Positions 15,734-28,263 are shown, numbered from the stretch's first letter. The stretch: DNA of 32,000 nt from Candidatus Iainarchaeum sp. (GCA_038736825.1 JAVYME010000001.1:125383-157382), one strand, 5' to 3'. Made by a program: numbers and translations. Notes: a model not told the origin generated them from the sequence alone.

Positions 15734-16303
15734 ATGGCATTCTGGCTTTTAGACTTATTCTTTTTTTTCCTGCCACTATGCTGGCTCTGGATTGAAAAAA
15801 AGCAGGGAATGCCGCTTTCAGCAAAAAAAGCAAAACTATTGTTAAGCGAACTCGGATTCAAGAGAGAAAAAGCAAAAATTGTTCTTCAAAAAACCATTCT
15901 GCTCTTGGGAGCACTCTTGCTTACAGCAACAATTTTAGCATTAGCACTCAACATGGCTGGATTGAATGACACAAAACTCGTTGAAGAACACGCAAAAGAA
16001 ATAATTGCAATTCCCTGGCTTGCAGCATACATATTGCTGGTAAGAGTGCCATGCGAAGAAATCTTTTTCAGGGGCTTCCTGCAAAGAGAAATAGGCAAAC
16101 TGGGAACAACAACCGGCATACTTGGCTCAACACTGCTGTTCGCAATAGCACACCTTGCATATGGCTCCATTGGGGAAATAATAGGCACCTTTGTTTTGGG
16201 AGCCTTGCTAGCAATCGCCTACCATCGCTCAAAAAACATAATCATCAATATTTTAGCACATATTGCATATAATTTCATCATATTTTTGTCAATAATGTGG
16301 TAA
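15734..16303 (+). CDS. CPBP-family intramembrane glutamic endopeptidase (CAAX protease/Abi family)
   Basis: It is multi-TM and carries the three family motifs: EEIFFRGFL, FAIAHL and ILAHIAYNF. Confidence 0.8.
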   Translation: MAFWLLDLFFFFLPLCWLWIEKKQGMPLSAKKAKLLLSELGFKREKAKIVLQKTILLLGALLLTATILALALNMAGLNDTKLVEEHAKEIIAIPWLAAYILLVRVPCEEIFFRGFLQREIGKLGTTTGILGSTLLFAIAHLAYGSIGEIIGTFVLGALLAIAYHRSKNIIINILAHIAYNFIIFLSIMW

Positions 16304-16306
16304 AAA

Positions 16307-17338
16307 ATGCCTGCTGGAAGCAAAAAAACAATAAAAAAAATAAAGGAAACAGGCTCAAGCCTTGTTTGCCTTGGAATTGAATGCACAGCCCACACATTTG
16401 GAGCCGGAATTGCAGACAGCAAAGGCCACATATTGGCAAACGAGCGCACTGTTTTCAGGACAACAGAAGGCGGCATAAAACCGCAAGAAGCAGCAGACTT
16501 TCACAGGGAAAACGCTACTCTAACAATCGCAAGAGCCCTAAAAAAAGCCGGCTTGGAAATAAAAGACATCAATTGCATTTCATTTTCCCAAGGCCCTGGA
16601 TTGGGTCCAACCCTCAAGGTTGGCGCAGTCGCAGCACGCACACTCAGCCTTATACATAACCTGCCTTTGGTTGGAGTCAACCACTGCATTGCACACATTG
16701 AAATCGGACGCCACCTCACCAAAGCAAAAAACCCCACCGTGGTTTATGCAAGCGGAGGCAACACCCAAATAATCGGCCTCACAAAAAAACATTATTCGGT
16801 TTTTGGGGAAACACTGGACATTGGCATTGGAAACCTGATGGATTCCTTTGGAAGAAAACTCGGTTTAGGCTTTCCAGCAGGACCAACTTTGGACAAATGG
16901 TATTTTGAAGGAAAAAAATACATTGAACTCCCATATTCTGTCAAAGGCACAGACCTTGTATTCTCTGGACTGCAAACAGCAGCAGAGGCAAAAATTGGAA
17001 AGTTTCCTGAAAAGGATTTGGCTTACAGTCTCTTGCACACCGCCTTTGCAATGCTTTGCGAGGCAACCGAGAGGGCTTTAGCGCACACAGAAAGAAACGA
17101 GGTTCTCTTAGTTGGCGGAGTGGCTTCAAGCAAGGCATTGAGGAAAATGCTTGAAAAAATGTGCAGGGAACGAAATGCAAAACTGTTTGTGCCAGAACAA
17201 CAGTATTGCGTGGACAATGGAGCCATGATTGCATGGCAGGGAATTCTTGAATTCTTGCACGGAAAAAGGACAAAAATCTCTGACAGCATTGCAAGACAAG
17301 ACTTTCGCGTGGAAGAAACCGAAGTAAATTGGACTTGA
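16307..17338 (+). CDS. kae1: tRNA N6-adenosine threonylcarbamoyltransferase Kae1 (KEOPS catalytic subunit), stand-alone
   Basis: The motifs GIECTAHTFGAGIAD ... SQGPGLGPTLKVGA ... VNHCIAHIE ... YASGGNTQ ... CVDNGAMIA match the Kae1/OSGEP family. At 343 aa it has no fused Bud32 domain. Confidence 0.92.
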   Translation: MPAGSKKTIKKIKETGSSLVCLGIECTAHTFGAGIADSKGHILANERTVFRTTEGGIKPQEAADFHRENATLTIARALKKAGLEIKDINCISFSQGPGLGPTLKVGAVAARTLSLIHNLPLVGVNHCIAHIEIGRHLTKAKNPTVVYASGGNTQIIGLTKKHYSVFGETLDIGIGNLMDSFGRKLGLGFPAGPTLDKWYFEGKKYIELPYSVKGTDLVFSGLQTAAEAKIGKFPEKDLAYSLLHTAFAMLCEATERALAHTERNEVLLVGGVASSKALRKMLEKMCRERNAKLFVPEQQYCVDNGAMIAWQGILEFLHGKRTKISDSIARQDFRVEETEVNWT

Positions 17339-17517: not shown

Positions 17518-17691
17518 AAAAAAACCACCAAGCAATAAAAACCAAAAAAATATAAAAAACCATTGCAATGGCAGTTGATTGAAACCGAACAATTCCAAAA
17601 AAGTTTAATTAGCAAAACAGTAAAATATAATAATAGAAAAAACATAAAATAGAAGAAAAAGTAAGGCTATAATGCTATGGTAGGTGGTTTG

Positions 17692-20600
17692 ATGAAGAAT
17701 GGTTTATTGGCAGTTTTGTTTTTGGCGTTTTTATCCACGTGGGCTTTTGCCACAACAAGTTATTATGAGCCAGCGCCCTCTCCAACAATTAACAACAGTT
17801 GTTCCTATCTTTACTGGTTCGACAATGACACAAAAACATGCGGATACAAGCAATTCTGCGGAACATACATGTACTATGGACTCCAAACATTCAAAACAAA
17901 AGAAGAATGCGAAACAGCCCTAAAAAAAACCCAACCACTCAATTGCACTCAAGACGTAAAAAAATGCGATGACGGCTCATACGTTTCAAGAGACCCATAC
18001 AACAACTGCGAATTCAAACCCTGCCCGACTGATACAACAACCTTAAAGGAACAAGTAAAATGTGTTTTTAGTGGCAGCACTGCCACTCAAAAATGCTATA
18101 CTGCTGACGGGCAATTCGAATGCTCTGGCTCAGGAACCTGTATAGCGAATGTTTATGGCAAAAAAGGAGCAACCCTGGTCTGGAAAAGCACTTGCGGCGG
18201 ATACGCTTACACTACCATAGATGGAACAAACAAGTATGCTGAATTCAAGTGCGAAGGCGGAGACTGCAAATACCTTTACTGGTTTGACAATTACACCAAG
18301 GCTTGCGGCTACCAAAAATTTTGCGGACAATACATGCATTATGGACTGCAAACCTTTGACTCATACGATGCTTGCGAGAAAGCCCTTGGCTTTGGGGGAA
18401 CCGAAATTGAACAACCCAACATAATTGTTTCAGCAGCCCCTACAAGCACAAGCAGTTCCACAACAACCACAACCGCAACAAACGCTTATTCTGTTGGCGT
18501 TTGCCCAATAAAAGAACAACCCGTTGCCTGCACAATGGAATACGCGCCCGTTTGCGCAACAATCCAACACTTTGGACCAAACGGCCAATACAGCAAGTAC
18601 AGGAAAACCTTTAGCAATGCCTGCATGGCTTGCGCTTCTTCAACCAAAACAGACCTTGTAGTGGAATATGTGAGCGGAGCATGCAGTCAAGAAACAGACA
18701 TTGAATGCCCGCTTGTTGAAAAAATGCCGCCAGAGGCATGCCCGAACGGCCAAATCTTGCCAGAATACGGTGAAATCAATGGCAAAAAATGCATTGTTGG
18801 ATATTACTGCAAGGAAGTGCAAGCGGATCCAACAAATGAAGTGCCTGTGTTCGTTTATGGTTCATATGGCGGGTTTGCGGTTATGGAAAAAACCATGGAA
18901 GTCTACAAGAATGGCGCCATAGTGGAGAAAAAGTCAATAAGCGGTCAAGTGACAAAAATGTCTGGGCAGACAAGCAGTGAAAAAGTGATTGAATTCCTTA
19001 AAAACCTTGACGCAAAAGGCTTTTTTGAATTGAAAATGACAAATCCAAGCTGTTGCATAACTAAAAGTGAAGGTGTCTCAATGTGTGTTGCCGACATGCC
19101 AATCCAAAAAATGTTTGCAAGGCTTGGCGAGAAAGAAAACAGCATTGCATGGTGCATTTTGGAAAAAGAACCTGAAGCAATAACATATGCTCTAAAAATG
19201 GTTCAAGAATTTGAATCATTGTTAAAGGAAAACCCTGAAAACACTACAAAATATGTTTCGCTTGGAGAAATCTTTGACCTTTCCCTAGGACAAAAGGCAA
19301 TAGTCAGGGAAACAGGCTTACAGGCAAAACTTTCAAGCATTGAACCAGACAGCGCTTTATTGATTTTAAAGCCAGCCTATAGCTTGCAGGAAACCGCTGA
19401 AAAAGAAACAAGCGATAAGTGGGTGAAAATAAAGGCAGGGGAAAGCGCAGAAGCCTTTGGCCACACTATTTACTTGAACAGCATACTTTTCCCCAAATGC
19501 GCCATAGAAAAAGACCTGAAAACAGGCGAAGAAACAACCAAATGCTATGGAGCATCACCCTATGCAAGCCTGACAATAACAAAGCAAGAAGTTAAAGAAA
19601 AAACAGCATACTTGGGAGAAAAATTCGAATTAAAAGTGAGTGAAAAAGCAACAATAATTGACTCCATGTCACAGAAAAAACTGCTCTGGGTGAGCCTTGA
19701 AGGCATCAGCATTCCAGTTGACTGCCCAATAAAGGAAAAATGCGATCCAACAAAAGGTTATTGCATTCAAGGCTGGTGTGACATGCGGGCAATGGCAAAA
19801 ATCCTTGTAAGCATTCCCCAACAATACGGTTCGGAAATGAAAGTAATAGAAGTAACTCCCTTGGCAATCCTTGAAGGTGAAACAAAAACAGTTGGCGAAT
19901 ACAAGATATACTTTGCAGGGCTTTCAGGCAAAAATGCTGTTTTCGTGGTGAATAGGCTATCCGAAGAAATAAAATACATAAAGGTAAGCCTTGGCGAAAA
20001 ATTCAAGCTAAAAGAAAAAGAAACAGCGCTTATATTGGACAAGGATATCTTTGTCACGCTGGTCAAGTCCGCAGTAATATCCCAACAGCCCTTTGAAGAA
20101 ACTGGGTGCCCTGGTCGGTCTGAAAGAAAAATGCAAGTCCAGCATTCAGTAAGCAAAACGCTTGACTGTGTTTATCTTGAAATCATGCCCCATTGTGCTC
20201 CAAACAGCCCCCACATTCTGCACATTGAAAATAACAAATGTGAAAACGAGGTGTTAGTATACATTGATGGAAAAGGGAACACGCACGAACTAGTGCACCG
20301 GGAACACTTAAACTCTCTTTGGTGGAAAAATGATGGCCAGCCTTACAGCTTTGAAGAATCAGGAATACCCCAAGAGATAGGGGCTGAGTGGACACGGGAA
20401 TTTTACTTTAAAAGCAATCCAAATGAAAAAGTGACCATTAAAGCCAAAAATATTGAGTTTTTGCCCGAGCCTAAACCTTACCCTGCAACAGGCTATGCAA
20501 TTGTTTCAGTCTGGAAAAAGGGATGGGGTGTAACGCCAATGCCCATAATCCAAGAAATAAAGCAAAAAATGGAAACCATACAAGAAAACATGAAAAACGC

Positions 20601-21837
20601 TGGAATTGATAGCAAAATAATGGAGCAAAACAGGATTGCCTCTGGTTCAAGCAACACTGTTTTCTACAAAAAAACCTATTTACTGAATTTGGGTGAAAGC
20701 CTCAAAATCTATGACATAAAGCTTTCACTCCTTGACCTCAGTGAAGGCAGTGCCGCCCTTTTGGCAGAAGAAACACCATATGATGACACAATCAACGTGC
20801 ATGTCGGCGAACCCTTCAAATTAAAGGAAAAAATGAAGGCAAGAGTGCTAGAAGCAAACCTGTTAATGGAACTCCTCGGAATTTACTCCGTAGAAGCATG
20901 TTATGACGTGCCAGAAGGACAAGCCGGTGGTTGCACTGCAAAAAACACTGTGAAAATAGGGGTAACAAATTACATGTTTGCAAAAGCACAAATGGGCAAA
21001 ACAGTGAGCAGCCAGCAGATTTCGGAAAAGGCAAAAAGCGAAATAATTGAAACAACTGGAATTGCTAAAAAAACAAACCAGCCACTCAATTGCACTCAAG
21101 ACGTAAAAAAATGCGATGACGGCTCATACGTTTCAAGAGACCCATACAACAACTGCGAATTCAAACCCTGCCCGACAACATCACAAAACACTCCAATAGA
21201 AATTCCAAAGCCAGTCAGTGTTTACACTCTTGGCGAAGGCGAATCCATTGCTGTCGGCGAATTCGAAATAACAGCCAAGGCAATCTGGGCAGACTATGCA
21301 GAATTTGTTGTCACAGAGAAAGGCACAGGCATTGAATTCAAGATTGCAATAGGAAAAGGGTGGAATTTGTTTTCAATTCCAGGCGAAATAAAAGCCACTG
21401 AATTGAACAAGTGCAATCTCAGCAATTTCAGGCTGTTTGAATACAAAAACGGACAGTTTGTTAAAGCACAAAAGGCAGAGCCAGGCAAAGCATACGGGCT
21501 TTACAATCCAAGCGAGGCTTGCACGATAAAAGCAAAACTGATAAAGCCGGTTTCCTTGTTTGAATTGAAACCATTGCAGAAAGGCTGGAATTTTGTGCCA
21601 GTGCTCAAGGATATGCTGGGAAGCCAACCAGGCAAAATGGGCAAATGCAATATGAAAGGCGCTTTCTTTTATGACTCTGAGGGAAAACAGTGGGTGAAGG
21701 CTATGGAAACCACTCTTGGAGAACAACACTTTGGAAAAGCACTCGCGGTTTATGCAGAAACAGGTTGTTCTCTTGCAAGCCCAGACATTCCAATCCCTGA
21801 AATTCCAGCTTTGCCGGAAATCTTGGAGGTGGGGTAA
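17692..21837 (+). CDS. giant secreted Cys-rich multi-repeat surface protein (hypothetical; 1381 aa from ATG 17692, 1386 aa from 17677)
   Basis: It is the longest ORF in the window. It has a Sec-type signal, MKNGLLAVLFLAFLSTWAFA|TT, with GGTGG upstream of 17692. There are about 50 Cys, an S/T linker, several N-x-S/T sequons and several internally repeated modules. No further TM segment is visible and no enzyme motif is recognised. Confidence 0.85.
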   Translation: MKNGLLAVLFLAFLSTWAFATTSYYEPAPSPTINNSCSYLYWFDNDTKTCGYKQFCGTYMYYGLQTFKTKEECETALKKTQPLNCTQDVKKCDDGSYVSRDPYNNCEFKPCPTDTTTLKEQVKCVFSGSTATQKCYTADGQFECSGSGTCIANVYGKKGATLVWKSTCGGYAYTTIDGTNKYAEFKCEGGDCKYLYWFDNYTKACGYQKFCGQYMHYGLQTFDSYDACEKALGFGGTEIEQPNIIVSAAPTSTSSSTTTTTATNAYSVGVCPIKEQPVACTMEYAPVCATIQHFGPNGQYSKYRKTFSNACMACASSTKTDLVVEYVSGACSQETDIECPLVEKMPPEACPNGQILPEYGEINGKKCIVGYYCKEVQADPTNEVPVFVYGSYGGFAVMEKTMEVYKNGAIVEKKSISGQVTKMSGQTSSEKVIEFLKNLDAKGFFELKMTNPSCCITKSEGVSMCVADMPIQKMFARLGEKENSIAWCILEKEPEAITYALKMVQEFESLLKENPENTTKYVSLGEIFDLSLGQKAIVRETGLQAKLSSIEPDSALLILKPAYSLQETAEKETSDKWVKIKAGESAEAFGHTIYLNSILFPKCAIEKDLKTGEETTKCYGASPYASLTITKQEVKEKTAYLGEKFELKVSEKATIIDSMSQKKLLWVSLEGISIPVDCPIKEKCDPTKGYCIQGWCDMRAMAKILVSIPQQYGSEMKVIEVTPLAILEGETKTVGEYKIYFAGLSGKNAVFVVNRLSEEIKYIKVSLGEKFKLKEKETALILDKDIFVTLVKSAVISQQPFEETGCPGRSERKMQVQHSVSKTLDCVYLEIMPHCAPNSPHILHIENNKCENEVLVYIDGKGNTHELVHREHLNSLWWKNDGQPYSFEESGIPQEIGAEWTREFYFKSNPNEKVTIKAKNIEFLPEPKPYPATGYAIVSVWKKGWGVTPMPIIQEIKQKMETIQENMKNAGIDSKIMEQNRIASGSSNTVFYKKTYLLNLGESLKIYDIKLSLLDLSEGSAALLAEETPYDDTINVHVGEPFKLKEKMKARVLEANLLMELLGIYSVEACYDVPEGQAGGCTAKNTVKIGVTNYMFAKAQMGKTVSSQQISEKAKSEIIETTGIAKKTNQPLNCTQDVKKCDDGSYVSRDPYNNCEFKPCPTTSQNTPIEIPKPVSVYTLGEGESIAVGEFEITAKAIWADYAEFVVTEKGTGIEFKIAIGKGWNLFSIPGEIKATELNKCNLSNFRLFEYKNGQFVKAQKAEPGKAYGLYNPSEACTIKAKLIKPVSLFELKPLQKGWNFVPVLKDMLGSQPGKMGKCNMKGAFFYDSEGKQWVKAMETTLGEQHFGKALAVYAETGCSLASPDIPIPEIPALPEILEVG
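17935..18029 (+). repeat. copy 1 of a perfect 95-bp in-frame direct repeat inside the giant ORF
   Basis: The repeat ccactcaattgcactcaagacgtaaaaaaatgcgatgacggctcatacgtttcaagagacccatacaacaactgcgaattcaaaccctgcccgac is identical base for base to 21082..21176. It encodes PLNCTQDVKKCDDGSYVSRDPYNNCEFKPCP. Confidence 0.92.
21082..21176 (+). repeat. copy 2 of the perfect 95-bp in-frame direct repeat
   Basis: It is identical to 17935..18029. The offset is 3147 bp (3 x 1049), so both copies share the reading frame. Confidence 0.92.
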
Positions 21838-22032
21838 ATGAACCTAAAAGTGATAGCAATAGTCTTAATTTTATTGATAACAATAACTGCTTTCAGTGGG
21901 TGCACTGAAACCCCCCCTGCAAAAACAACTCCGACACCAACGCCAAGCAGTGGAATTGAGGCTGACTCGAAAAGCATTCCAATGCCAACAGACACTGGCG
22001 ACAGTGGAGCGCCACCTGAACTGCCGCTTTAA
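21838..22032 (+). CDS. small lipobox protein with T/P-rich linker (64 aa), translationally coupled to the giant ORF
   Basis: The sequence MNLKVIAIVLILLITITAFSG-C22 has a lipobox-like signal, followed by TETPPAKTTPTPTPSSG. Its ATG directly follows the TAA of the giant ORF and is preceded by GGAGGTGG within that ORF's last codons. Confidence 0.6.
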   Translation: MNLKVIAIVLILLITITAFSGCTETPPAKTTPTPTPSSGIEADSKSIPMPTDTGDSGAPPELPL

Positions 22033-22059
22033 AAAAAAAGCGGCTTTTATTATTTTTTT
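22023..22059. terminator. hairpin plus T-run between convergent genes (putative bidirectional terminator)
   Basis: GCCGCTTT (22023-22030) pairs with AAAGCGGC (22037-22044) around an A-rich loop. TTTTATTATTTTTTT follows immediately. It spans the stop codons of both convergent ORFs. Confidence 0.5.
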
Positions 22060-22697
22060 CTTTTAGCCAATTGCATTTTTTCAGCCAGTTTTCTTTTTCT
22101 TGCATGCCTGTCCAAAGAATCAAATTTCAAGGCATAATTGTGCATGTAAAGGAAAACCGCGGTTATTGCTGCAAAGGTAAGAATTTTTGCAATTGTATCC
22201 CATGGAGCAGGCAAGTCTGTGCCGGATTTTTTGAGCAGGGAAAGCCAGCTTAAAAGCCAGTCATTGTTCAAATTTGGGTCTGGATCCAAATAAAGATAGA
22301 CAGCCATAACAATTAGCATGACATAAGCAAAATCTATGAGGATTAAGGCAATAGAAAAAGGGTTTTCACGGGAACGCCTTATTTTAGCGCTGGTTGTTTC
22401 CTTTAAAAGAGAATGCAAGCCGGAATCAAGAGAGTGAAAAGTCCAGTTGCGCTTTTTTGAAACAAAACTAATGGAAAAAATCGTGAACACAACTAGTGCC
22501 ATCACAATGTACACTGAAAGGTCTTCCGAAAAAGAAATTGTGCGCATTTCCCAGTCAATATGCAAAACATGGTATAATTCAAAAAGAAAAACCAGTGCAA
22601 GCAAAACCTGTATTGCGAGAAGAAAGAGGGCCTTTTTGTTCTTTTGTTTTGCATTATCAAGCGCCACTTTTTTCTCTGAAGCTTTCCATTTAGCCAT
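22050..22697 (-). CDS. hypothetical integral membrane protein (about 4 TM segments, basic termini)
   Basis: The 215-aa ORF has four hydrophobic stretches (LFLLAIQVLLALVFLF, VYIVMALVVFTIFSISFV, FSIALILIDFAYVMLIVMAVYLYL, IAKILTFAAITAVFLYM) and K/R-rich ends. I recognise no family. Confidence 0.55.
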   Translation of the reverse strand: MAKWKASEKKVALDNAKQKNKKALFLLAIQVLLALVFLFELYHVLHIDWEMRTISFSEDLSVYIVMALVVFTIFSISFVSKKRNWTFHSLDSGLHSLLKETTSAKIRRSRENPFSIALILIDFAYVMLIVMAVYLYLDPDPNLNNDWLLSWLSLLKKSGTDLPAPWDTIAKILTFAAITAVFLYMHNYALKFDSLDRHARKRKLAEKMQLAKRKK

Positions 22698-22801: not shown

Positions 22802-23218
22802 TTATTCAAACTTTAAGCCGAATTCTCTGTCAATCCGTTTCGCTGTTTCCTGCATTCTGCGAAAAATCCTGTCAATGTCTTCCTCTATTTCCTGTATTGT
22901 GCGGTAAACGCTCCTAGAGCGCGGCACATAATAACGGCCTTCTTTGAGCACAAGGCCAGCAGTGATAAGGTTGTTCAAGTGGTTTATTACAGAGCCACGG
23001 CTCATTTTAACCATTTTTGCCAGGTCGGTTGAAGTAAGCTTTTTGCCCTTGTCATAGTTTTTCACAATGTGCCTGAATATTGCACTGGCGGTTTTTTCCT
23101 TGTCTATTTCTTCAAAAAAACCCAAAGACCTGCAAAGGAATGCGAATTCCTCGTCTGGGTTGTGGGAAAACGGGGGCTCTATTTTGCGAATTGTTATCCT
23201 GAAAGGTTTTGCGGGCAT
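22802..23218 (-). CDS. winged-helix DNA-binding protein (ArsR/MarR-like), hypothetical regulator
   Basis: The sequence LTSTDLAKMVKMSRGSVINHLNNLITAGLVLKEGRYYVP is an HTH plus wing, followed by a helical C-terminus. The ATG at 23218 is preferred. The track start at 23323 would overlap the divergent bud32 start and the AT-rich promoter region. Confidence 0.65.
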   Translation of the reverse strand: MPAKPFRITIRKIEPPFSHNPDEEFAFLCRSLGFFEEIDKEKTASAIFRHIVKNYDKGKKLTSTDLAKMVKMSRGSVINHLNNLITAGLVLKEGRYYVPRSRSVYRTIQEIEEDIDRIFRRMQETAKRIDREFGLKFE

Positions 23219-23301
23219 ATAAAAAAATTGGCTGAAAAGCATTAAAAGATTTTTGATTAAAGAATCCAATAAATAATTAAATGGTTTAAACAGGTTTTCT
23301 T

Positions 23302-23904
23302 GTGGCAGAGAAGGCAATCGCAAAAGGCGCTGAAGCTGAAATCATTTCGCTTAAACTCCAAGAAAAAAACGCAATTGAAAAACACAGGCTTTCAAAGGGC
23401 TACAGGTGCAAGGAACTCGATGAAAAGATAAGAACTGAAAGGACAAGGCTTGAAGCACTGTTATTGCATAGAGCCAAAAAAGCCGGAGTGAGAACCCCCC
23501 TTTTATTTGCAGTGGATTCTGAAAAGAAATCCCTCTTCATGGAATTCATTAAAGGAAAAAAAGCAAAAAGCAAAATAAAGGGAAATCAATGGCTTTGCAG
23601 GGAAATAGGCAGAAAAATTGCTGCAATGCATTCCAGTGACATAATCCACGGCGACCTAACAACTGACAACATCATTGTCAGCGGAAAACAAGTTGTTTTC
23701 ATAGACTTTGGCTTGGGTTTCAATTCAAGCAAAGAAGAAGACAAAGCCGTTGACCTAATCAACCTAAAAAAAACATTGCTTGCCGGCAATGCATCCCTAA
23801 AAAAGGAATGGAACACAATATTGAAAGCATATGTTGCCACAACGGGAGAAAAAAAAATTTCAGAAAAAATTGCACAAATAGAAAAGCGCGGAAGATATGC
23901 ATAA
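23302..23904 (+). CDS. bud32: Bud32-like atypical protein kinase/ATPase (KEOPS subunit), stand-alone
   Basis: It begins with AKGAEAEII and carries the catalytic loop IIHGDLTTDNIIV and the FIDFGLG (DFG) motif. The small size (200 aa) is typical of archaeal Bud32. The start codon is GTG. Confidence 0.8.
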   Translation: MAEKAIAKGAEAEIISLKLQEKNAIEKHRLSKGYRCKELDEKIRTERTRLEALLLHRAKKAGVRTPLLFAVDSEKKSLFMEFIKGKKAKSKIKGNQWLCREIGRKIAAMHSSDIIHGDLTTDNIIVSGKQVVFIDFGLGFNSSKEEDKAVDLINLKKTLLAGNASLKKEWNTILKAYVATTGEKKISEKIAQIEKRGRYA

Positions 23905-26052: not shown

Positions 26053-28263
26053 ATGAAGAAAAGTGCTTTTGCCCTTTTGGCTTTCGGCTTAATCTTGTTT
26101 TTTTTATTGAATGGCTGCAATGAACCATTGATTCCAACAGAAGAATATGAAGTGCACGAGTGGGGGGTTATTGCAGGCTGTCATAGTTCAGAACAATGGA
26201 TTCTGACATCTAGACCAGAGCAAGCCACTGCAGTGCTTGTAAAGGAGCCTGTAATTTACGTGCATGCTGGAAATTTGAAAAATTTCAGTGCCAAGGCAAT
26301 TTTCAGCAGTGGAAACCCCACTCTGGCTTACCCGCAAGCTGAAATTTCCAAAAACTCTTTGAAATGGGAAAACGTGCAGGTTGTCGGAAAAACAGGCAAA
26401 ACAGAAATGGAGACTGTAAAAGGCTTTGGCGAACTTTTGCCGCTTCAGTCAATAATTCCAACCCTTAACGATGTTGAAGCCGACTTGCTAAAGCATGGGG
26501 ACACTGAGGCACGATTCCTCTTCTACGAGGGCGAAATGCAATTTGAAAACAAAATAACGGTTTCCTATGAACTGGAAGAAGCAGGGGATTCATCTAAAAT
26601 AAAAGGGCAAAAGGCTATTGTAAAAAACAATGCCGGTTATGATGTTTTCAATGTTTTTCTTTCAATCAATACCGGTCCGGTCTATGGGGTAAAGTACGCT
26701 TACACTGGCTTTTTGAGTGAATTGAAAGCCGGGCAGAGCAAGGAAATCAAATTAGATTACAGAAAACTGGATGGGGATGAACTAGTAGAACTAAGGAATA
26801 GGGAAAAACTGGGCTTGAAAGCAAAAATGATGCAGTTGGGTTTTACTGAAAAAGAATCACAGGCGTTTGATTCGCTTTGGGCAACTCCCTTTTACCGACC
26901 TTCAAACATTGACAGATTTGCAAGGCTTTCATACTTGTTGCCGCAAAGCGAAACCGAAAAACTCATAAAACTGGAATTCAATCCGACTCCAAAAAAAACA
27001 ATAAGGGCAATGTGGGTTCTCGTGGACTTAAGCGAAGAAAAAAAATGCGAAACCGATTTTGACTGCGAAAAATGGGGTCATGAAACCTGCAGCTACGGCT
27101 GCTATTTTTCTTGCAAAAATGGAGCCTGTGCGTGCTCCTGCGAAGAATTGGCATGCAAAAACGATAATGACTGCAAAAAACTTGTGAAAATATCACAGTG
27201 CCCAATTTCATGCCAAAAAGGATTTTGCTTGGAGAATTGCGGTAGGGCAGGAGAGTGCCAGCAAGACGAGGATTGTACTTGGGTTAACACCAACTGTTGC
27301 CCTGAAAGCGCAGGCGCGAAATGGGAGTGCATGAGCAAACTCGCAAAAATAGACTGCCCTGAAAACCCAGTTTGCTTGCAGGTTATAAGCCCAAAACCCG
27401 AAACAATGTGTTTGTGTAGGGGAGGCAAAAATAGCTGTGAGGAAGTGCGAGTAACAATTAAAACCGATAAAACGGAATACGAGCAAGGCGAAACAGTGAA
27501 ACTGAATGCTGAAATAAAAGGCAACTTGTATGACTGGAGGGGAATCACAATTGAAAAAAAGGTTGGCGGGGAATGGCTTTCAGCAGAAAGAGATTACGGC
27601 TATCCTTGCTTTTTAAAAAAAACCTGTGAGGAATTCTTAAACCTGCCTCAAATGGTGCGACCACTGTGCAAAAAAATTGAAAACAGTTTTTTAAGAGAGT
27701 GGACGCAGGAAGCCAGCACTGGCGTGGTTCCGCCTTGCGAATGGAGTGGTGAACCCAAAGGAGTCCCTTATTGCAGGATAATCCACAAGGCAGAAGCCGG
27801 CATTTACCGCTTCAGTTTAAGTTATTGGCTTGATGAAAACTGCGCAGGTGAAGAATTTGAAGTGAAATCAAACGAGTTCAAAATAAAAGCACCTAAAGAA
27901 ATAGTTGAATTGTGTTCAAAGGAAAAAGCACGTGCTGAAGAAATCAAAGCAGATCCAGATTGCAGTGAGGATGGTTTTCGTTGTGTGGATGGATGGGGCC
28001 AATACTATTACTATGACAACTGGCTTGCAAACCCCAAGGATTCCATGAAATCACTAAATTATGATCCGCCGGCAAGGGTGAAAAACGCACTCATTGCAAA
28101 ATACCTTCGCAGCAATTGCTCTTGCAACAAGCCTTTTTCTTACCAAATTGTAACCAATAATGGGTTCAAGGAAACCGAATGCGAATCCTATTACTCTTTC
28201 TTGCGAGACTATAATGCTTTATGCAATGGGTGTGTATTGCACTGGGAAACAGGGTGCTGTTAA
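26053..28263 (+). CDS. secreted Cys-rich lipoprotein (736 aa, hypothetical)
   Basis: It has a lipobox-type signal, MKKSAFALLAFGLILFFLLNG-C22. There are more than 40 Cys, including 24 in aa 332-462 (nt 27046-27438), arranged as three C-x2-D-x-DC-led modules. The protein ends in ...WETGCC. No TM segment is visible besides the signal. Confidence 0.8.
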   Translation: MKKSAFALLAFGLILFFLLNGCNEPLIPTEEYEVHEWGVIAGCHSSEQWILTSRPEQATAVLVKEPVIYVHAGNLKNFSAKAIFSSGNPTLAYPQAEISKNSLKWENVQVVGKTGKTEMETVKGFGELLPLQSIIPTLNDVEADLLKHGDTEARFLFYEGEMQFENKITVSYELEEAGDSSKIKGQKAIVKNNAGYDVFNVFLSINTGPVYGVKYAYTGFLSELKAGQSKEIKLDYRKLDGDELVELRNREKLGLKAKMMQLGFTEKESQAFDSLWATPFYRPSNIDRFARLSYLLPQSETEKLIKLEFNPTPKKTIRAMWVLVDLSEEKKCETDFDCEKWGHETCSYGCYFSCKNGACACSCEELACKNDNDCKKLVKISQCPISCQKGFCLENCGRAGECQQDEDCTWVNTNCCPESAGAKWECMSKLAKIDCPENPVCLQVISPKPETMCLCRGGKNSCEEVRVTIKTDKTEYEQGETVKLNAEIKGNLYDWRGITIEKKVGGEWLSAERDYGYPCFLKKTCEEFLNLPQMVRPLCKKIENSFLREWTQEASTGVVPPCEWSGEPKGVPYCRIIHKAEAGIYRFSLSYWLDENCAGEEFEVKSNEFKIKAPKEIVELCSKEKARAEEIKADPDCSEDGFRCVDGWGQYYYYDNWLANPKDSMKSLNYDPPARVKNALIAKYLRSNCSCNKPFSYQIVTNNGFKETECESYYSFLRDYNALCNGCVLHWETGCC

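Follow-up and report, generated by a model that had tools for sequence, protein, structure and literature searches.

The window, 32,000 nt from Candidatus Iainarchaeum sp. (Iainarchaeia; Diapherotrites, DPANN), carries a giant gene followed directly by a small ORF. Amino acid positions refer to the 1386-aa longest ORF from 17677, in which the ATG at 17692 is M6.

17677–21837 (longest, 1386 aa) or 17692–21837 (1381 aa), plus strand: giant ORF
17692–17751, plus strand: start codon M6 and Sec-type signal peptide MKNGLLAVLFLAFLSTWAFA/TT (GGTGG, NCBI model, hydropathy)
17800–17922, plus strand: module A, copy 1 (aa 42–82; four Cys; CxYLYWFDN..CGY..FCG.YMYYGLQTF...C..AL)
17935–18027, plus strand: module B, copy 1 (aa 87–117; four Cys; CTxxxKxCxDGSxVxRxPxNNCEFxPCP; self-comparison)
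18046–18252, plus strand: module C (aa 124–192; 69 aa, six Cys; KEQVKCVF...WKSTCGGYAYTTIDG.NKYAEFKC; homologue matches)
18265–18387, plus strand: module A, copy 2 (aa 197–237; self-comparison)
18436–18480, plus strand: Ser/Thr-rich linker (aa 254–268; translation)
18502–18684, plus strand: Kazal-like six-Cys module (aa 276–336; Pfam Kazal_1, sub-threshold)
18700–19236, plus strand: opening part of the conserved core: Cys-knotted beta hairpin (aa 342–378) and alpha/beta domain (aa ~390–520) (alignment, AF2)
19240–21324, plus strand: four split beta domains with variable inserts between halves (hhalign, BLAST, AF2)
aa 578–606, 726–762, 996–1032 and 1177–1216: type i halves of the split domains (hhalign)
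aa 522–566, 639–680, 765–802 and 1036–1075: type ii halves of the split domains (hhalign)
20089–20466, plus strand: lineage-specific insertion (aa ~805–930) within split domain 3 (homologue alignment)
21082–21174, plus strand: module B, copy 2 (aa 1136–1166), within the linker of split domain 4 (nucleotide self-match)
21337–21780, plus strand: double-GWN C-terminal domain (CTD, aa 1221–1368), two homologous halves GWN...C...Y...W...C (profile search, hhalign)
21781–21837, plus strand: proline tail PDIPIPEIPALPEILEVG and stop codon (motif count)
21838–22032, plus strand: small partner ORF (64 aa) with signal peptide, lipobox AFSG/C, Pro/Thr linker and IPMP...APPELPL end
22023–22044, plus strand: terminator-like hairpin and T-run closing the two-gene unit

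The ATG at 17692 is the likely start codon, as GGTGG sits 5–8 nt before it and the NCBI model (P0001), a 100% match to the giant protein, begins there. The top Kyte-Doolittle windows of the N-terminus lie at aa 1–12 and AFA/T at aa 23–26, which fits the Sec signal peptide proposed in the first-pass annotation; a hydropathy scan found no hydrophobic segment beyond it. The protein has seven N-glycosylation sequons. The ORF and every motif listed in that annotation are present in the sequence. The gene is genuine and its predicted product is a secreted, disulfide-rich mosaic protein, for which a surface location is plausible.

The head of the protein is built from small Cys-rich modules which are shuffled among close relatives while the core and CTD stay conserved. 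The paired copies of modules A and B, both pointed out in the first pass along with the Ser/Thr linker, are evident on self-comparison. Those of module A share 68% identity over 37 aa (E 5e-18; 75% over 116 nt); every full-length homologue has two or three copies, and P0023, an unrelated multi-enzyme protein, has a single one as its C-terminal part. The module B copies are identical in protein sequence and 97% identical over 108 nt (21069–21176 versus 17922–18029), pointing to a recent duplication, and homologues have no module B at the site of copy 2 in the alignment. Elsewhere, module B turns up in the small partners encoded at loci L001 and L007 (one contig), at L027 and, five times over, in a diatom protein (P0021). 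Module C had been overlooked. It is common to a set of uncharacterised, large, mosaic Cys-rich surface proteins with signal peptides from DPANN and CPR (Patescibacteria) genomes (P0007–P0020), at 53–69% identity and in up to six tandem copies; unlike the giant protein, these have no conserved core or CTD, and instead display thioredoxin or other domains and other C-termini.

The Kazal-like module resembles Kazal domains in its six Cys (276, 285, 293, 316, 319 and 336), in most of their spacing (C-x7-C, C-x2-C, C-x16-C) and in its PVCA and TFSNAC motifs, but not in its Pfam score: the match to Kazal_1 (PF00050) at aa 282–327 has an E value of 0.016 and 15.6 bits, short of the 21-bit gathering threshold. 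None of five other homologues matches Kazal_1 at E 0.1 or better in Pfam, though the module is conserved in five homologues. The exception in spacing is C3–C4, where the 22 residues make a loop ~12 residues longer than the ~10 typical of Kazal domains. A genuine Kazal_1 match (28 bits) is present in another CTD protein (P0119). This module, and the lack of an anchor in the large protein itself, would be compatible with secretion in soluble form, say as a protease inhibitor of the Kazal type or a cryptic enzyme, and not with a role in the cell surface. We consider this very improbable, since the sub-threshold match concerns a single small module, 60 aa out of 1386, since Pfam, NCBIfam and PDB sequences give no match to a catalytic family for any part of the protein, and the conserved CTD and its pairing with a predicted lipoprotein (see below) favour retention at the cell.

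The conserved core opens with a region containing invariant Cys and Gly columns (alignments A1 and A3; AF2 pLDDT 55–88). A likeness of its alpha/beta domain to Mago nashi was not significant (Foldseek E 2.6e-3), the match being placed on this domain from the order of secondary structure, without aligned coordinates. Further along, the first-pass annotation had described at least seven short beta-like repeats around an LGE motif. All six of the quoted examples are present and are genuine repeats by hhalign, but as judged from profile comparison they resolve into a split beta domain of two halves that is present four times, and not into seven short units. HMM-HMM probabilities between halves are 92–97% for type ii and 34–95% for type i, pairwise BLAST E values reach down to 2e-6, and beta strands are present in AF2. 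The insertion in the third domain is missing from homologues P0002–P0006, and has AF2 pLDDT values of 24–45; P0003 and P0005 have a module B at that site.

Homologues of the giant protein in Iainarchaeia MAGs are 35–61% identical over more than 1000 aa. The gene was found in one copy per genome in 19 Iainarchaeia genomes, a count made from two peptide patterns only, which divergent paralogues could escape, and it retains its synteny beside housekeeping genes. The earlier reader could name no characterised family, and searches of Pfam, NCBIfam, PDB sequences and Foldseek likewise returned nothing significant for the giant protein; full-length homology to a characterised S-layer or enzyme family was not found. 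Specifically, there was no S-layer resemblance by PDB sequence match, Foldseek match at E < 1e-3 or S_layer Pfam family, and no ligand-binding domain was identified in Pfam or NCBIfam.

The C-terminal domain is where the protein connects to a much wider set. The duplicated KGWN motifs recognised in the first pass (KGWNLF at aa 1227, KGWNFV at aa 1302) belong to two related halves (hhalign probability 96%, E 3.6e-9) of a domain of ~150 aa with two predicted disulfides and with Trp and Tyr invariant in both halves. The AF2 model (pLDDT 81, pTM 0.68) has no fold match in Foldseek. A profile search gave 646 matches, most of which cover only the last ~165 profile positions, with the CTD match ending a median of 2 aa from the protein C-terminus. 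The CTD is carried by ~140 other cluster-representative proteins, almost always at the extreme C-terminus and, where named, from DPANN or Altiarchaeota. The passengers differ: CARDB, Laminin_G_3 (lectin-like), F5/8-C (discoidin), Big_7, DsbA/thioredoxin and Kazal domains are all represented, and 95 of 108 full-length CTD proteins have an N-terminal signal-like segment. Directly after the CTD, P-x-[LMFIV]-P is found in 126 of 141 proteins against a background of 2.4%, and 70% of these tails lie no more than 5 aa from the protein end. The proline-rich tail noted in the giant protein (IPIPEIPALPEILEVG, aa 1371–1386) is disordered in AF2 and undocked on the CTD. We define the double-GWN CTD family here by two halves with GWN and a Cys pair, C-terminal position and a following P-x-[LMFIV]-P; the window protein has all three, and scores 149 bits against a 24-sequence CTD profile.

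The first-pass annotation had also held that the protein ends with no membrane anchor or sorting signal. As to the anchor this stands: the last 60 aa of the giant protein contain nothing resembling a TM segment (maximum 19-mer Kyte-Doolittle 0.86), and hydropathy found a C-terminal TM segment in none of the 141 CTD proteins. An archaeosortase/exosortase signal of the PGF-CTERM or PEP-CTERM type is also absent, there being no TM helix and no NCBIfam match. The denial of any sorting signal is probably wrong, because the CTD and proline tail are common to ~140 proteins and a small lipobox ORF adjoins; the CTD appears to act like an anchoring or sorting module. Like PGF-CTERM, the T9SS CTD and SLH, it is a conserved module that closes many secreted proteins whose passengers are unrelated to one another. 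In contrast to them, it has neither TM helix nor basic tail (0/141) and matches nothing in Pfam or NCBIfam, being instead a duplicated two-disulfide domain with a P-x-[LMFIV]-P end and a dedicated adjoining gene for a predicted mini-lipoprotein.

The ATG of the small ORF abuts the giant's stop codon and is preceded by an SD-like GGAGGTG, with no terminator-like site between the two ORFs, suggesting that they are co-transcribed as a two-gene operon. We regard this pairing as obligate, with a small ORF lying directly after the CTD gene in 27 of the 29 archaeal loci read. Small ORFs were found at all 19 Iainarchaeia loci (L007–L025, of which L007 is on the same contig as L001), at L002–L005, in the window and at four of six other archaeal loci of the scan (L028–L031); none was found at L026 or L027. 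They start between −10 and +30 nt relative to the large gene's stop, encode 60–106 aa with a signal peptide and usually a lipobox Cys, and end PPELP[FLI]. In an alignment of 25, the Cys is present in 23, mostly in an xSGC, xAGC or xIGC context, two have no clean lipobox, and the terminal P..P is kept in at least 90%. By the published definition, a lipobox is [LVI][ASTVI][GAS]C placed after the h-region of a signal peptide, and AliA, which lipidates lipoproteins, has been reported from DPANN (PMC12462473). The window ORF has ITAFSG/C, with F at −3, and its predicted mature peptide of ~43 aa is probably lipid-anchored via this Cys. At loci of the Nanoarchaeota and Altiarchaeota type, a membrane-bound wHTH regulator lies upstream and displays the same Pro motif on its ectodomain.

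On this basis we favour, at a probability of roughly 55%, an operon whose two genes provide a cell-surface assembly in which the small lipoprotein tethers the large protein by the latter's CTD and tail. The first gene would encode a ~151-kDa Sec-secreted protein of three tiers: a variable disulfide-rich head of shuffled modules A, B, C and the Kazal-like module; a conserved stalk, in which an alpha/beta domain is followed by the four split beta domains; and the conserved CTD ending in the proline tail. The second would provide the membrane tether, a lipid-anchored peptide whose end is a Pro motif of like type (PPELPL), while the large protein, with no membrane anchor of its own, would be kept outside the cell by the CTD and tail, presumably through contact of the CTD with the Pro motifs. 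If the large protein is held in this way, its conserved end should therefore lie near the membrane with the variable Cys-rich head facing outward, and a membrane-proximal C-terminus fits a conserved core and CTD with a shuffled head. A point against the tether is the unusually small mature size of the partner. The CTD and tail with the adjoining lipobox mini-protein are nevertheless most likely an anchoring device.

The aromatic-rich CTD could bind glycan rather than peptide. It would then be a carbohydrate-binding or export-recognition domain (like a CBM, SLH or the T9SS CTD), with the tail a spacer and the small ORF an independent lipoprotein or assembly chaperone. The invariant Trp and Tyr are typical of sugar-binding sites, the domain is C-terminal on diverse passengers, and Cys-less relatives end large Dehalococcoidia proteins with no small ORF downstream. 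We nonetheless think this decidedly unlikely: it leaves unexplained the Pro motif shared by both proteins and the regulator ectodomain, and searches of NCBIfam and Pfam with the whole giant protein found no C-terminal sorting-domain family, Kazal_1 and HTH_22 being the only matches below threshold.

A narrower form of the tethering arrangement would make the giant protein the main lattice protein of an S-layer, with the small lipoprotein as a SlaB-like anchor. As for SlaA/SlaB of the Sulfolobales, which are envelope proteins with a variable outer part, the gene for a large, secreted, beta-rich, anchor-less subunit lies beside that for a smaller, predicted membrane-anchored one, and the size, beta-rich repeats and single syntenic locus are compatible with such a role. 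No S-layer protein has been determined in DPANN and candidates have no homology between lineages (bioRxiv 10.1101/2023.10.27.564410). However, neither Foldseek search of the PDB was significant, neither sequence nor fold resembles SlaA/SlaB, and the partner has ~43 mature residues and a predicted lipid anchor as opposed to ~400 aa and a C-terminal TM helix. The Cys-rich mosaic head is unusual for S-layer proteins, the Cys-rich modules and Pro-motif tail are points of difference from SlaA/SlaB, and the seven sequons are few. The very diverse CTD passengers, moreover, mean that a general anchoring domain fits better than a single lattice protein, and we regard the lattice as possible but on the doubtful side.

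The first-pass annotation had proposed a candidate protein for attaching an episymbiont to its host. As such an adhesin, for a host or other partner cell, it would bind the host surface with its variable Cys-rich head. Shuffling of modules A, B and C among close relatives, the late duplication of module B, the occurrence of module C in many large surface proteins of the episymbiont-rich DPANN and CPR, and lectin-like or discoidin domains on other CTD proteins all argue for this. We judge it unlikely, since the giant protein has no recognisable ligand-binding domain and its core is conserved and syntenic, not fast-evolving; Iainarchaeum may also be able to live on its own (PMC6349945). With a syntenic gene that was found once per genome and an organism that may be independent, we take a core envelope role to be at least as likely as host attachment.

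A bolder extension of the tethering model, to which we give little credence, is a three-component surface module across DPANN and Altiarchaeota, in which PPx[LMFIV]P motifs on the large-protein tail, the ~40-aa lipoprotein tether and the wHTH regulator ectodomain would all dock to the double-GWN domain as a new polyproline-binding fold, anchoring the main surface coat and reporting its assembly state to transcription. More generally, the pairing of CTD and tail with a mini-lipoprotein points to an undescribed way of keeping large proteins on the cell surface.

The giant gene lies within a group of genes for which we use the following coordinates.

16307-17338: kae1/TsaD
17677-21837, + strand: giant ORF, 1386 aa, a single long ORF in the window
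20089-20466: lineage-specific insertion of ~125 aa within the giant protein (aa ~805-930), containing four Cys
21838-22032, + strand: small partner ORF, 64 aa, its ATG directly following the giant stop codon and preceded by GGAGGTG
22050-22697, - strand: ~4-TM protein, 215 aa, with a Lys-rich C-terminus and no Pfam family
22802-23323, - strand: soluble HTH_5 protein, downstream of the giant gene in the window's clade
23302-23904: bud32-like RIO-type kinase

The giant protein is identical to P0001, a hypothetical protein from a Candidatus Diapherotrites MAG which begins at M6 (nucleotide 17692), and the ATG at 17692 is the likely start of the gene because it is preceded by GGTGG. The N-terminus is hydrophobic and ends AFA↓T. 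The ORF has the base composition of the remaining window, and a sigma-70 promoter scan returned matches no higher than those in shuffled background. The possibility that the ORF is not a gene is ruled out by its conservation. Every feature listed in the first-pass annotation was found in the sequence, among them the S/T run, both KGWN motifs, all six of the 'LGE' strands that it quotes, and IPIPEIPALPEILEVG at the end of the protein; the pattern of the 52 Cys residues (3.8%) tracks the modules. The giant gene is real, and the initial observation is both confirmed and extended.

An exhaustive HMMER profile search using the core alignment (threshold E ≤1e-3) returned 646 proteins, comprising ~8 full-length relatives, ~35 sharing the last third and a remainder which mostly match the last ~165 profile positions alone. 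The family is visible through HMMER; a word-index search with a broad profile of this C-terminal domain (CTD, aa 1221-1368) found just two proteins, and a search with the close profile four. Four Cys are conserved in the CTD, two of them invariant alongside two GWN motifs, a Met, a Trp and two Pro, and the other two nearly so. The domain is an internal duplication whose halves are related at 96% probability (HMM-HMM, E 3.6e-9), and a dedicated AF2 model is confident and all-beta (pLDDT 81, pTM 0.68). A structure search with this model found nothing significant, the best E values being 0.046 in the PDB and 0.029 in BFVD. The domain is covered by no Pfam or NCBIfam model.

In the 141 CTD proteins analysed, the distance from the end of the match to the C-terminus has a median of 2 residues. 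The motif P-x-[LMFIV]-P directly follows the last CTD Cys in 126 of them, compared with 2.4% of control windows, and in 70% of those 126 it lies ≤5 residues from the end. None of the 141 has a C-terminal TM segment, while 95 of 108 full-length proteins begin with a signal-like segment. The passengers are unrelated to each other and extracellular (CARDB, Laminin_G_3, F5/8 type C, Big_7, DsbA-like thioredoxin and Kazal). Because the CTD recurs on such diverse passengers with a conserved terminal motif, the duplicated KGWN motifs and proline tail are hallmarks of a widespread C-terminal module. A distant relative of the CTD, a double 'GWNL...GYWVW' domain lacking Cys, closes large secreted proteins of Dehalococcoidia/Chloroflexi (L032-L040, e.g. 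L035 121-3525); it is without a Pfam or NCBIfam family and is 22–26% identical to the archaeal CTD. Its conserved end, PGTLVP, is unlike the archaeal tail, and these genes have no small ORF after them.

The small ORF that follows the giant gene encodes a signal peptide, a lipobox-like AFSG↓C, a Pro/Thr linker, an IPMP motif and the terminus APPELPL. A hairpin and T-run are present at its stop codon, and none was found between it and the giant gene. Equivalents occur at L001, L002 and the distant CTD loci L003, L004 (a Nanoarchaeota MAG) and L005. A genome scan using a close 11-sequence alignment returned 34 loci, each from a separate genome. The small ORF is present in all 19 Iainarchaeia loci (L007-L025), including the complete GW2011_AR10 genome and one Falkowbacteria-labelled bin, and in four of the six other archaeal loci (L028-L030 from Altiarchaeota and L031 from Nanoarchaeota); it was not found in L026 or L027. 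Across 25 aligned small proteins the Cys is nearly invariant, the C-terminus is PP[ES]LP[FLI] or PPxIP, and most contain an internal hydrophobic-P-M-P motif. The Falkowbacteria-labelled locus (L013, contig JAFCBY010000015.1) carries an archaeal CTD gene of 41% identity with a typical mini-lipoprotein, and has probably been misplaced from Iainarchaeia into a CPR bin, the alternative being transfer.

The wider neighbourhood differs between lineages. In archaea the genes for Kae1 and Bud32 usually lie side by side or are fused. In the window a ~6-kb cassette comes between them, containing a coiled-coil small ORF and the giant, mini-lipoprotein, 4-TM and HTH genes, an order that is kept in L001, L002 and L007-L009; RIO1, KH/PNO1 and topoisomerase VI genes are instead the neighbours of the more distant CTD loci. 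Only the closest relatives keep the ~4-TM protein next to the mini-lipoprotein on its downstream side (E 1e-72 to 3e-29), and it is possibly part of the module in the window's clade. At five Nanoarchaeota- or Altiarchaeota-type loci, a gene for a family of membrane-spanning regulators adjoins the CTD gene upstream.

L004, 4569-5597: full-length regulator
L005, 985-2145: full-length regulator
L029, 222-1250: full-length regulator
L027, 2-1066: regulator cut off at the N-terminus
L031, 1-306: regulator seen as its C-terminal 102 aa

The full-length regulators consist of a signal peptide, an ectodomain (with a weak CarboxypepD_reg match in L005 only), one TM helix and a cytoplasmic winged-HTH domain, and each displays a PPx[LMFIV]P-type Pro motif (APPPPPIE, IIPPSIPN or TPPELPG) close to the start of the mature protein. 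Elsewhere in the window, a gene for an Rce1-like CPBP intramembrane protease (15734-16303, +) sits just upstream of kae1. A second large Cys-rich predicted lipoprotein (26053-28263, +; 736 aa), whose signal peptide ends LLNG↓C, matches nothing in Pfam and has none of modules A, B, C, Kazal-like or CTD; it would be another uncharacterised surface protein.

Five full-length homologues of the giant protein (P0002-P0006, 35–61% identity) were retrieved by word-index search, and are collinear with it from aa ~342 to the end. The ~125-aa insertion has no counterpart in these proteins and is predicted with very low AF2 confidence; P0003 and P0005 have module B at the equivalent position. The suggestion that the protein resembles no characterised family held up across Pfam, NCBIfam, PDB and Foldseek: an NCBIfam search gave no match, PDB sequence profile searches nothing credible, and the sole Pfam match was a sub-threshold Kazal_1 (15.6 bits vs 21). 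The seven short beta-like repeats described initially are real, but HMM-HMM comparison of sub-alignments resolves them into four copies of a two-part domain. Copies of the 'type ii' half (LGExFxL...A.V....L.L) match one another with 92–97% probability and those of the 'type i' half (L..GE...vG.y.I....A.F.V) with 34–95%, and the inserts between halves vary, being Cys loops, module B or the private insertion. Modelled by AF2, the 1045-aa core is poor overall (pLDDT 57, pTM 0.28), with the split domains predicted as beta structure. The best Foldseek match to the core, Mago nashi (E 2.6e-3), is not significant and no fold was assigned; a SAKe/Kelch match (E 2.4e-4, with no single stretch passing alone) vanished with a broader profile and was discarded as spurious, the confident CTD model showing no match to propellers either.

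Preceding the core are small Cys-rich modules, whose number and order vary among relatives. Whole-protein BLASTP self-comparison gave the identity match alone, and internal repeats were therefore sought with overlapping 60-aa segments. This recovered the two reported copies of module A (E 5e-18), and the two of module B proved to have identical protein sequences. The module B copies (17922-18029 and 21069-21176) are 97% identical over 108 nt, which points to the 36-aa module having recently been duplicated within the gene, or inserted into a linker; the second copy occupies a linker where relatives have no module, and there is no comparable DNA repeat elsewhere in the gene. Overlooked previously was module C (aa 124-192; 69 aa, six Cys), which alone is common to many DPANN and Patescibacteria proteins in up to six tandem copies. 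An unrelated multi-enzyme protein ends in module A, and one small partner protein carries module B. Five copies of module B are also present in P0021 from the diatom Skeletonema menzelii (aa 1024-1240), together with a GH19 chitinase domain, so module B crosses domains of life.

The CTD on diverse secreted passengers, the terminal peptide, an anchor-less giant protein and an adjacent, putatively membrane-anchored mini-protein that ends in the same peptide form the pattern expected of a surface-retention system, and because the locus fits this pattern we read the giant protein as a tethered surface protein. Its conserved C-terminus would lie near the membrane, held by the small lipoprotein, with the variable Cys-rich head facing outward. 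The protein may be the lattice-forming coat, an adhesin, or the bearer of a general anchoring device. We infer that the aromatic-rich CTD may bind Pro motifs; AF2 leaves the cis tail disordered. Lipidation of the small partner is plausible, since AliA, an archaeal lipoprotein enzyme, is on record for DPANN (PMC12462473). In function, the SlaA/SlaB pair of Sulfolobales is the nearest analogue; for DPANN, an S-layer protein has yet to be determined (bioRxiv 10.1101/2023.10.27.564410). A relationship to the hamus, the grappling hook of Altiarchaeum, was set aside: L029 (721 aa), the single CTD protein from Altiarchaeales that was read over its full length, shows by eye none of the S-layer-like N-terminus published for the hamus subunit (PMC4460559). 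The first-pass annotation had put the protein forward as a candidate for the surface or for attachment to a host, an interpretation supported in part: a surface location is plausible, and host attachment would be one possible role. Iainarchaeum may be able to live independently (PMC6349945). Surface proteins that pair an anchoring module at the C-terminus with a small anchor protein are a known function class, and the version seen here seems not to have been described in the libraries and literature searched.

The construction and anchoring of the cell surface in DPANN archaea are largely unknown, and these surfaces presumably play a central part in interactions with other cells. The locus defines a widespread uncharacterised CTD for which no related fold was detected, a proline motif conserved at the terminus and an obligate mini-lipoprotein partner, and thereby a concrete, testable candidate for surface anchoring in Iainarchaeia, Nanoarchaeota or Woesearchaeota-type lineages, and Altiarchaeota. 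The CTD and its tail also provide a simple sequence signature with which to list the surface proteins of uncultivated archaea.
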